Assembly (NCBI GenBank): GCA_001767955.1
Contig: MEMO01000021.1
Location: 8,344-72,343, forward strand
Origin: Alphaproteobacteria bacterium RIFCSPLOWO2_01_FULL_40_26
GTDB lineage: Bacteria; Pseudomonadota; Alphaproteobacteria; Rickettsiales; UBA1997
Direction: 5' to 3'
Length of the DNA stretch: 64,000 nucleotides
In this document: positions 19,754 through 20,175 of the stretch, piece by piece
Layout of the letters: every line of letters begins with the position of its first letter
How positions within the stretch are numbered: position 1 is the stretch's first letter
Position numbers and translations under genes: made by a program
The notes under the pieces: generated by a model
The model's database searches: none
Told to the model about the DNA's origin: nothing
Seen by the model: the letters and a program-made list of their open reading frames with translations, nothing else

Positions 19754-20175
19754 GGCTGATAATGATAGCGACATTGCACAATGATCACACGACCATCTTG
19801 AATCATGTAAACTAGCCGGTGCTCATCATTGATCCGACGCGACCAAAAACCGGATAAATTACCTCTCAACGCTTCTGGTTTTCCGGTTCCAGAAAATGGA
19901 GTACGAGCAATTTCTTTAATTAAAGCATTAATTCGCTTGATCATCGTTCTATCATGTTGCTGCCAATAAACATAGTCTTCCAAGGCATTAGAGCCTGTTT
20001 TCAAACCCAGCGCGTTTCGATTTTGCCCAAATTTTGTGCGACTTTTTGGCAAAATTTTGCCGCTGTATCTGGCATACTGCAAAAAATTTTGCCAAAAAAC
20101 GAGCCAAAATTTGGGCAAAAGCGAAATGTGGTGGGTTTGAAAACAGGCTCTAAAATCAAAACTAATTTGTTTCAT
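19750..20175 (-). CDS. yoeB: YoeB/Txe-family toxin carrying a 54-aa in-frame palindromic-element insertion after residue 8
   Basis: ..[57 protein letters not shown]. Confidence 0.8.
   Translation of the reverse strand: [141 protein letters not shown]
19991..20150. mobile_element. 160-bp palindromic MITE-like element, family A copy A2 (inside yoeB)
   Basis: GAGCCTGTTTTCAAACCC..GGGTTTGAAAACAGGCTC with TA flanks. Confidence 0.9.

Follow-up and report, generated by a model that had tools for sequence, protein, structure and literature searches.

A palindromic miniature element inserted in frame near the start of a chromosomal yoeB toxin gene in an uncultured alphaproteobacterium

Can a toxin still act once a mobile element has been built into its N-terminus, and what does an open reading frame (ORF) that has survived such an insertion say about selection? 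The question is raised by a chromosomal yoeB gene of the uncultured Alphaproteobacteria bacterium RIFCSPLOWO2_01_FULL_40_26. The stretch of DNA analysed here, called the window, comprises 64,000 nt of contig MEMO01000021.1, and coordinates are those of the window unless a contig is named. The yoeB ORF (nt 19750–20175, minus strand) specifies 141 amino acids (aa), which is exactly the translation given in an earlier reading of the letters alone (the original prediction). Codons 1–8 occupy nt 20175–20152 and are followed by 54 codons contributed by a palindromic element of 160 nt (copy A2, nt 19991–20150), the rest of YoeB being encoded by codons 63–141. Comparison of sequences favours, with a probability of roughly 0.6, a young insertion of a transposable element of the miniature inverted-repeat type (MITE) into codon 8 that has left the toxin attenuated or dead, the frame being open through youth and one-in-three luck and not through selection for a new function.

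The interrupted yoeB gene and its empty site

The 141-aa protein matches the Pfam family YoeB_toxin (PF06769) over residues 63–139 (E = 1.3e-38), with a profile score of 131.3 bits against a curated cut-off of 27. When the 54 inserted residues are deleted in silico, the resulting 87-aa protein covers positions 1–80 of the 80 in PF06769 (E = 2.4e-39), which bears out the original prediction that a complete YoeB lies outside the insert. The antitoxin gene yefM (nt 20162–20425, minus strand; 87 aa; Pfam PhdYeFM_antitox, PF02604, E = 3.9e-17) lies immediately upstream, and its final 14 nt overlap the start of yoeB. TA dinucleotides flank the element on the left (nt 19989–19990) and on the right (nt 20151–20152), and the 160 nt of the element plus a 2-nt TA amount to 162 nt, or 54 codons, just as had been counted. 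Codon 8 of yoeB is TTT, its third base being the T of the left TA (in gene orientation). The pre-insertion sequence reads GAT TTT AAT GCC (D F N A), and the target TA straddles codons 8 and 9.

Comparison with related yoeB alleles, a check named in the original prediction, revealed the empty site. The closest insert-free YoeB (P0002, 85 aa) is 79–80% identical and is encoded by a sister species in the gene order ilvC-yefM-yoeB-glmU, on contigs L002–L004 and on an 88.5-kb JGI contig. In a DNA alignment of the window with the sister species (L002/L003), the loci are colinear except for exactly 162 nt, and the 14-nt overlap of yefM and yoeB is also kept. The empty site thus comes from a between-species comparison; no insert-free yoeB allele of the same species was found among the assemblies and protein records searched. 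The best 120 YoeB homologues are all 79–88 aa long, except for P0001, a near-identical allele with the same insert, and P0046, an unrelated element-bearing ORF.

The interrupted allele is found in more than one assembly. The insertion is shared by an independent ENA assembly (strain L001, 6876 nt), which matches the window at 99.97% identity, and the 141-aa allele is present too in JGI/IMG and among proteins derived from SRA runs. The two differences in 6876 nt both fall within the element (window nt 20080 and 20093). Each lengthens an A/T run, and the chance that both would fall in the element if differences were evenly spread is (160/6876)^2, or about 5e-4. They could reflect a true hypermutability of the palindrome or errors of assembly.

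The four genes ilvC (nt 20435–21454), yefM, yoeB and glmU (nt 18416–19753) are tightly packed on the minus strand, with a 9-nt gap between ilvC and yefM, the 14-nt overlap already mentioned, and a 4-nt overlap between yoeB and glmU. Homology puts the ATG of glmU at nt 19753–19751, overlapping the yoeB stop codon (ATGA, nt 19753–19750), and the gene calls of strain L001 (yoeB, 2894–3319; glmU, 3316–4653) show the same overlap. In a more distant relative (L005, the nearest representative genome, IlvC 84% identical), ilvC directly adjoins glmU without the toxin‒antitoxin pair (L005 nt 3510–6012, compared with window nt 18416–21454), so that yefM-yoeB would have arrived first and the element later. 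The yefM-yoeB pair was thus itself set between housekeeping genes, ilvC and glmU, and now shares bases with the start codon of glmU. The nearest genomes by IlvC (82–84% identity) are uncultured metagenome-assembled genomes (MAGs) labelled Rickettsiales or Alphaproteobacteria, and the element peptide is found in Rifle groundwater MAGs of the type 'Alphaproteobacteria bacterium RIFCSP..._40_..'. An exact 27-mer of the element core gave no matches in representative genome contigs, a set that apparently does not include the host species.

The element family and its putative transposase

The insert in yoeB is a MITE: it is short and multicopy, has terminal inverted repeats, a TA duplication and a precise empty site, and carries no transposase gene. 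The terminal inverted repeats (GAGCCTGTTTTCAAACCC / GGGTTTGAAAACAGGCTC) are perfect over 18–20 nt, and the element as a whole forms a hairpin, with 71-nt arms that are 86% complementary and a centre of 24 nt. The only products it could specify are the 54-aa read-through peptide or short spurious ORFs. Profile searches with the 54-aa peptide in both orientations returned only seven short hypothetical ORFs (43–75 aa), which are spurious calls on intergenic copies, and the element peptide is not a recurrent protein module. An Rfam search of the whole window found one tRNA only and no family matching the element.

Five copies are present within the 64-kb window, and a 46-nt element probe gave two matches there where 0.00 were expected by chance. 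Copy A1 (nt 176–337, 98% identical) lies in a minus-strand gene for a glutamate-5-kinase (proB-like; Pfam AA_kinase), again in frame. The original prediction had described A2 as matching A1 with few mismatches but inverted relative to its host gene, and this was confirmed: window nt 174–337 are complementary to nt 19990–20153 (98% over 164 nt), and with both host genes on the minus strand the two orientations are opposed. Copy A1 follows the residues ...EKNPRTHKNA and precedes NLITEVFEI..., the AA_kinase match ends just ahead of the insert, and the gene runs off the start of the window. The remaining copies are intergenic. One is an older copy (nt 48250–48409, 89% identical), and two are diverged (nt 42148–42307 and nt 11743–11905), with stop codons in all six frames. 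There is also a solo terminal repeat on the minus strand (nt 17883–17902, a 20/20 match with no partner), shared with strain L001 (nt 5167–5187), which may be the remnant of a deleted copy.

Metagenome contigs were scanned with the terminal repeat, which gave 16 distinct insertion sites after deduplication. TA is found on both sides at 15 of the 16; the exception is the proB copy of the window, in which one TA has become TG (CA on the gene strand), a synonymous change from GCT to GCC. An IscU gene (NifU_N) carries a copy in frame that is 99.4% identical (L110 nt 7595–7754, L170 nt 713–872), and in contig L107 a copy lies at the last codons, that is, the C-terminus, of a membrane protein gene. 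The IscU gene is itself split by an intein and the MITE lies inside that intein, so that one mobile element is nested in another within a housekeeping gene. A related MITE with 76% identity and TA flanks (L206 nt 3300–3458) occurs in a different uncultured alphaproteobacterium (Loclat_bin-14143), which shows that the family is not limited to one species.

The terminal repeat GAGCCTGT(T/C)TTCAAAC also bounds an 859-bp insertion sequence (IS) in an unrelated metagenome contig (L104 nt 1066–1924). This IS has ends GAGCCTGTCTTCAAAC, TA flanks, and two overlapping ORFs with the domains DUF4096 and DDE_Tnp_1. The IS427 group of the IS5 family is characterised by a length of 830–865 bp, a 2-bp direct repeat and two frameshift-joined ORFs (PMC3281130). 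Since the size, TA duplication and DUF4096 and DDE_Tnp_1 domains of the L104 element agree with these traits, the MITE can be assigned IS427-type ends, and its putative parent would be a member of the IS427 group. An origin from IS630/Tc1-mariner elements, which the TA duplication had brought to mind, was ruled out, as the IS that share the repeat carry DUF4096 and DDE_Tnp_1, not DDE_3. Like bacterial MITEs derived from IS5-family, IS427-group IS, the window element is small, lacks a transposase, has terminal repeats beginning GAG.., is flanked by a 2-bp TA duplication and is present in many copies. It differs from them in that the whole element, and not the ends alone, forms one long hairpin, and in that the matching IS comes from an unrelated contig. 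A cognate transposase was found neither in the window nor in contigs of the same organism, and the host organism yielded no copy of the 859-bp IS.

A second palindromic MITE family was observed in the window (nt 6435–6628, 41051–41244, 49711–49904 and 59521–59714), of about 170–190 nt with 78-nt arms. It has GAACCTGT ends and TA flanks, and the transposase that moves it is probably of the type that serves the yoeB element. Further repeats include palindromes based on the heptamer TTCGTGC, GACCCCGCAACAAGTGCGGGGTGACA hairpins and a CCCTCTCCC...GGGAGAGGG palindrome (nt 8540–8616, 9632–9694, 46391–46453, 1863–1915, 18361–18413, 21486–21526, 34424–34464, 63867–63907, 14857–14957 and 59325–59425). 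The genome represented by the window is unusually rich in palindromic repeats.

Reading frame, orientation and age

The original prediction laid stress on the fact that both orientations of the element can be translated. Both are indeed open, but this is unremarkable, being explained by the palindrome and by a composition poor in TA. Young copies are stop-free in one phase of three, and it is the same phase for both orientations, while the phase beginning at the T of the TA always opens with TAG. Being a near-perfect palindrome, the element encodes similar peptides in its two orientations (61% identical; one of them reads RACIQTQRVSIL...). The element contains only two TA dinucleotides. Among dinucleotide-preserving shuffles, that phase lacked stops in one orientation in 24% and in both in 7.6%, and when the palindrome was preserved the figure for both orientations was 21%. 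Two-way translatability is a by-product of composition and symmetry.

With one phase open in three, the ORF of a gene would survive a random insertion with a probability of about 1/3, in either orientation of the element. Four copies lie in recognisable genes (yoeB, the proB-like gene, the IscU gene and the membrane protein gene) and all four are in the open phase, for which the chance expectation is (1/3)^4 = 0.012. These four belong to the youngest subfamily, being at least 98% identical to A2; older copies (86–89%) are intergenic or lie in 5' leaders. That all four are in phase fits purifying selection, which would remove insertions that disrupt genes the cell needs. For yoeB in particular, a dispensable gene, nothing follows from it.

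How long the element has been in yoeB can be judged from the same comparisons. Copies of the young subfamily are 98.1–99.4% identical (1–3 nt differences per 160), the window and L001 have diverged by 0.03%, and the 264 nt of yoeB would be expected to have gained only about 1–2 substitutions since the element arrived. These values point to a very young insertion, too young for the intact ORF to say anything about toxin function. Between the window and the sister species, synonymous divergence (dS) is saturated, and the non-synonymous values (dN) are 0.118 for yoeB, 0.136 for yefM, 0.098 for ilvC and 0.155 for glmU. The similarity of yoeB to its neighbours would reflect long-term constraint that predates the insertion, and the measure is powerless for the time since.

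The course of events suggested is as follows. A non-autonomous 160-bp MITE with IS427-type ends would recently have transposed into a TA of the chromosomal yoeB gene, duplicating the 2-bp TA. The frame would have stayed open since 162 nt make 54 codons and the element happened to land in its only stop-free phase, an outcome that the palindrome would make independent of orientation.

Consequences for the toxin

Residues 63–139 of the 141-aa protein align to residues 8–84 of Escherichia coli YoeB (107 bits), which puts the insert after E. coli residue 7 and ahead of residue 8, in the turn that leads from strand beta1 into helix alpha1. The inserted residues are basic and hydrophobic, and they separate the equivalents of Trp5 and Glu7 from that of Trp10. 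In E. coli YoeB, alpha1 and alpha2 make up the dimer interface, Glu7 takes part in its hydrogen-bond network, and Trp5, Glu7 and Trp10 contribute to both this interface and the YefM-binding pocket; the W5A mutant is monomeric and about 20 °C less stable, with its ribonuclease (RNase) still active (PMC6821326). Trp fills the Trp10 column in at least 90% of 50 homologues, and its place in the window protein is taken by Leu. A typical YoeB is a compact single domain of some 84 aa in which beta1 and alpha1 are contiguous and Trp5 and Trp10 line a pocket, and the 141-aa protein lacks this arrangement. The E. coli YefM-YoeB system (PDB 2A6Q, 4V8X, 6OXA) is matched in the conserved catalytic-site equivalents and in the overlapping yefM upstream, and departed from in the insertion and in the replacement of Trp10. 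Dimerisation and the YefM-binding pocket are likely to be disturbed by the insert.

Modelling with AlphaFold2 from a 50-sequence alignment gave predicted local distance difference test (pLDDT) values of 78–91 for the core (residues 63–139) and below 55 for the insert. In that alignment MAFFT had set the N-termini of the homologues against the last part of the insert, which makes strand beta1 of the model (residues 57–60) an alignment artefact and the N-terminal strand assignment unreliable. Modelling of the single sequence was uninformative (mean pLDDT 42.8). As the core is intact and confidently modelled, any loss of function would stem from the insert and not from decay of the core.

The insertion also alters the messenger. 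The element RNA forms a hairpin of about 160 nt (-102.5 kcal/mol, z = -11.7) that begins 22 nt downstream of the AUG of yoeB, a point 9 nt past the stop codon of yefM. It was ruled out as an intrinsic terminator, there being no trailing U/T run after the hairpin, and a promoter and terminator scan of yefM-yoeB gave nothing informative. A perfect stem of this length is a plausible substrate for RNase III and a plausible obstacle to elongation, and with either cleavage or a block toxin output would fall relative to the antitoxin. Loss or weakening of the toxin could thus come about through monomerisation, destabilisation, poor translation or a cleaved mRNA. An active toxin that could not be neutralised would be lethal, yet the allele occurs in several samples, so that the surviving allele is most likely harmless, whether attenuated, unstable, poorly expressed or still neutralised. 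The yoeB::MITE allele would then be a young passenger, neutral or mildly beneficial. The original prediction had named attenuation, altered antitoxin binding and decay as candidate outcomes, all of them reasonable. Taken as a whole, the sequence evidence leans to attenuation or early decay over a selected new function.

Several observations weigh against a weakened or dead toxin. An initiating ribosome usually covers a stretch that ends just short of the hairpin, which need not block initiation. The remainder of the ORF is intact, and the catalytic-site equivalents E101, R120, H138 and Y139, invariant in 50 homologues, are all present in the window protein. They correspond to Glu46, Arg65, His83 and Tyr84 of E. 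coli YoeB, reported as its catalytic residues (Kamada & Hanaoka 2005). The allele occurs in several independent assemblies and no insert-free counterpart turned up in the same species, a pattern compatible with a protein that is tolerated and still works. By analogy with the palindromic elements of Rickettsia (PMC10969869), some 50 extra residues in a loop can leave a protein functional, and monomeric YoeB keeps its RNase activity (PMC6821326).

Several of these points favour the best placed of the alternatives, which is nonetheless unlikely: that the 141-aa protein folds, is an active RNase and is neutralised by YefM, the 54 residues looping out of the beta1-alpha1 turn as a tolerated surface insertion. 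The intact, well-modelled core would suit such a protein, as would the in-frame copies in the proB and IscU genes, whose products presumably still work. The position of the insert tells against it, between residues that form the dimer interface and the antitoxin pocket, as do the Leu at the near-invariant Trp10 position and the low pLDDT of the insert. The toxin is, moreover, dispensable and, unlike proB, under no requirement to stay functional.

The open frame could also owe its survival to selection on the essential gene glmU and not on the toxin, in that only an in-frame insertion free of stops would preserve ribosome flow from yoeB and avoid polarity, an explanation that is compatible even with a dead toxin. 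The ATGA overlap and the tight packing of the four genes on one strand would accord with such coupling, and no sigma-70-like promoter match was found on the minus strand between ilvC and glmU, by a crude scan that leaves room for an internal promoter. In the sister species, however, yoeB ends next to the start of glmU without overlapping it, and a chance of 1/3 needs no selective account. As the sole reason for the open frame this coupling seems improbable, although within the preferred account of a young, weakening insertion the need for ribosomes to run into the overlapping glmU start may have helped to keep the frame open.

NCBI records on five contigs call a YoeB of 86 aa (P0128) that begins within the element, and a length so close to that of a normal YoeB would be expected if translation started within or downstream of the element, giving a YoeB without its true N-terminus. 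The AlphaFold2 model, which takes residues 57–60 as strand beta1, would point the same way, but this is the misaligned part of the model. The proposed start codon is CTG, lacks a Shine-Dalgarno sequence and lies deep within the hairpin's 3' arm, whereas the authentic ATG, the overlap with yefM and the N-terminus MKQISFD are all shared by the sister species. The NCBI annotation has the look of homology-guided start picking, and an internal start is very unlikely. An artefact of assembly is barely credible and was rejected: a chimera across the repeat does exist (P0130, a read-level assembly in which the N-terminal part of another element-bearing ORF is fused to the C-terminal part of yoeB), but here yoeB lies on both flanks in the correct order and phase with a TA duplication, and identical junctions recur in the independent ENA assembly and in proteins from JGI, NCBI and SRA runs. 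The records P0128 and P0130 serve as a warning for annotation, in that gene callers may start yoeB inside the element and assemblers may build chimeric ORFs over the repeat.

Insertion of palindromic elements in frame is already known from Rickettsia and other bacteria, and the present elements are a new MITE family, of IS427 type, that behaves likewise. The Rickettsia palindromic elements (Ogata et al. 2000) are described in PMC10969869 and PMC3184786 as in-frame repeat insertions into genes. Both are alphaproteobacterial palindromes (about 100–150 bp in Rickettsia), both are found between genes and in frame within unrelated protein-coding genes, and both add a peptide of about 50 residues while the ORF is kept. 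The window element differs in having clear terminal inverted repeats, a TA duplication and IS427-type ends of the IS5 family. Its host is not a Rickettsia but an uncultured groundwater or freshwater alphaproteobacterium with ilvC and proB, and only about four intragenic cases occur among the 16 sites; the likeness drawn here is one of behaviour. ERIC, YPAL and RU of enterobacteria and BOX and SPRITE of pneumococcus (Delihas 2007; Croucher 2011; as summarised in PMC3184786) are likewise small mobile repeats with an open frame that become fused in frame to host ORFs, and their RNA hairpins can affect mRNA stability. They belong to other families and hosts, and most extend the 3' ends of genes and do not split a folded domain. 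The decay of ccdO157 in E. coli (Mine et al. 2009, as mentioned in PMC3184786) offers a parallel in a chromosomal type II toxin with a lesion that probably weakens it while the antitoxin is intact; the yoeB lesion differs in being frame-preserving and very recent, with no further degradation visible.

A bolder reading, improbable on present evidence, is that the MITE and its GAACCTGT sister family are the counterpart of the Rickettsia palindromic elements in a free-living lineage, with a stop-free phase that has been selected and a yoeB insertion retained because it is useful. If so, the youngest copies would survive preferentially within genes. The insert would have turned a dimeric, tightly bound toxin into an attenuated or monomeric one, or the hairpin would skew expression towards the antitoxin, with the coupling to glmU kept. 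Palindromic elements that add peptides to proteins would gain an identifiable transposase origin (IS427 group, TA target), and the locus would be a natural case of a mobile element domesticating a toxin.

Under the preferred reading of a young MITE insertion in a toxin that is probably attenuated or dead, the locus is of interest in other ways. In-frame palindromic insertion, best documented in Rickettsia, is seen here in an uncultured and metabolically fuller alphaproteobacterium, and one particular class of transposase (IS5 family, IS427 group) is indicated by the ends and the TA duplication of the element. The yoeB insertion itself amounts to a clean natural experiment, in which 54 residues have been placed in the dimer and antitoxin pocket of a well-studied toxin, with an insert-free orthologue at hand.

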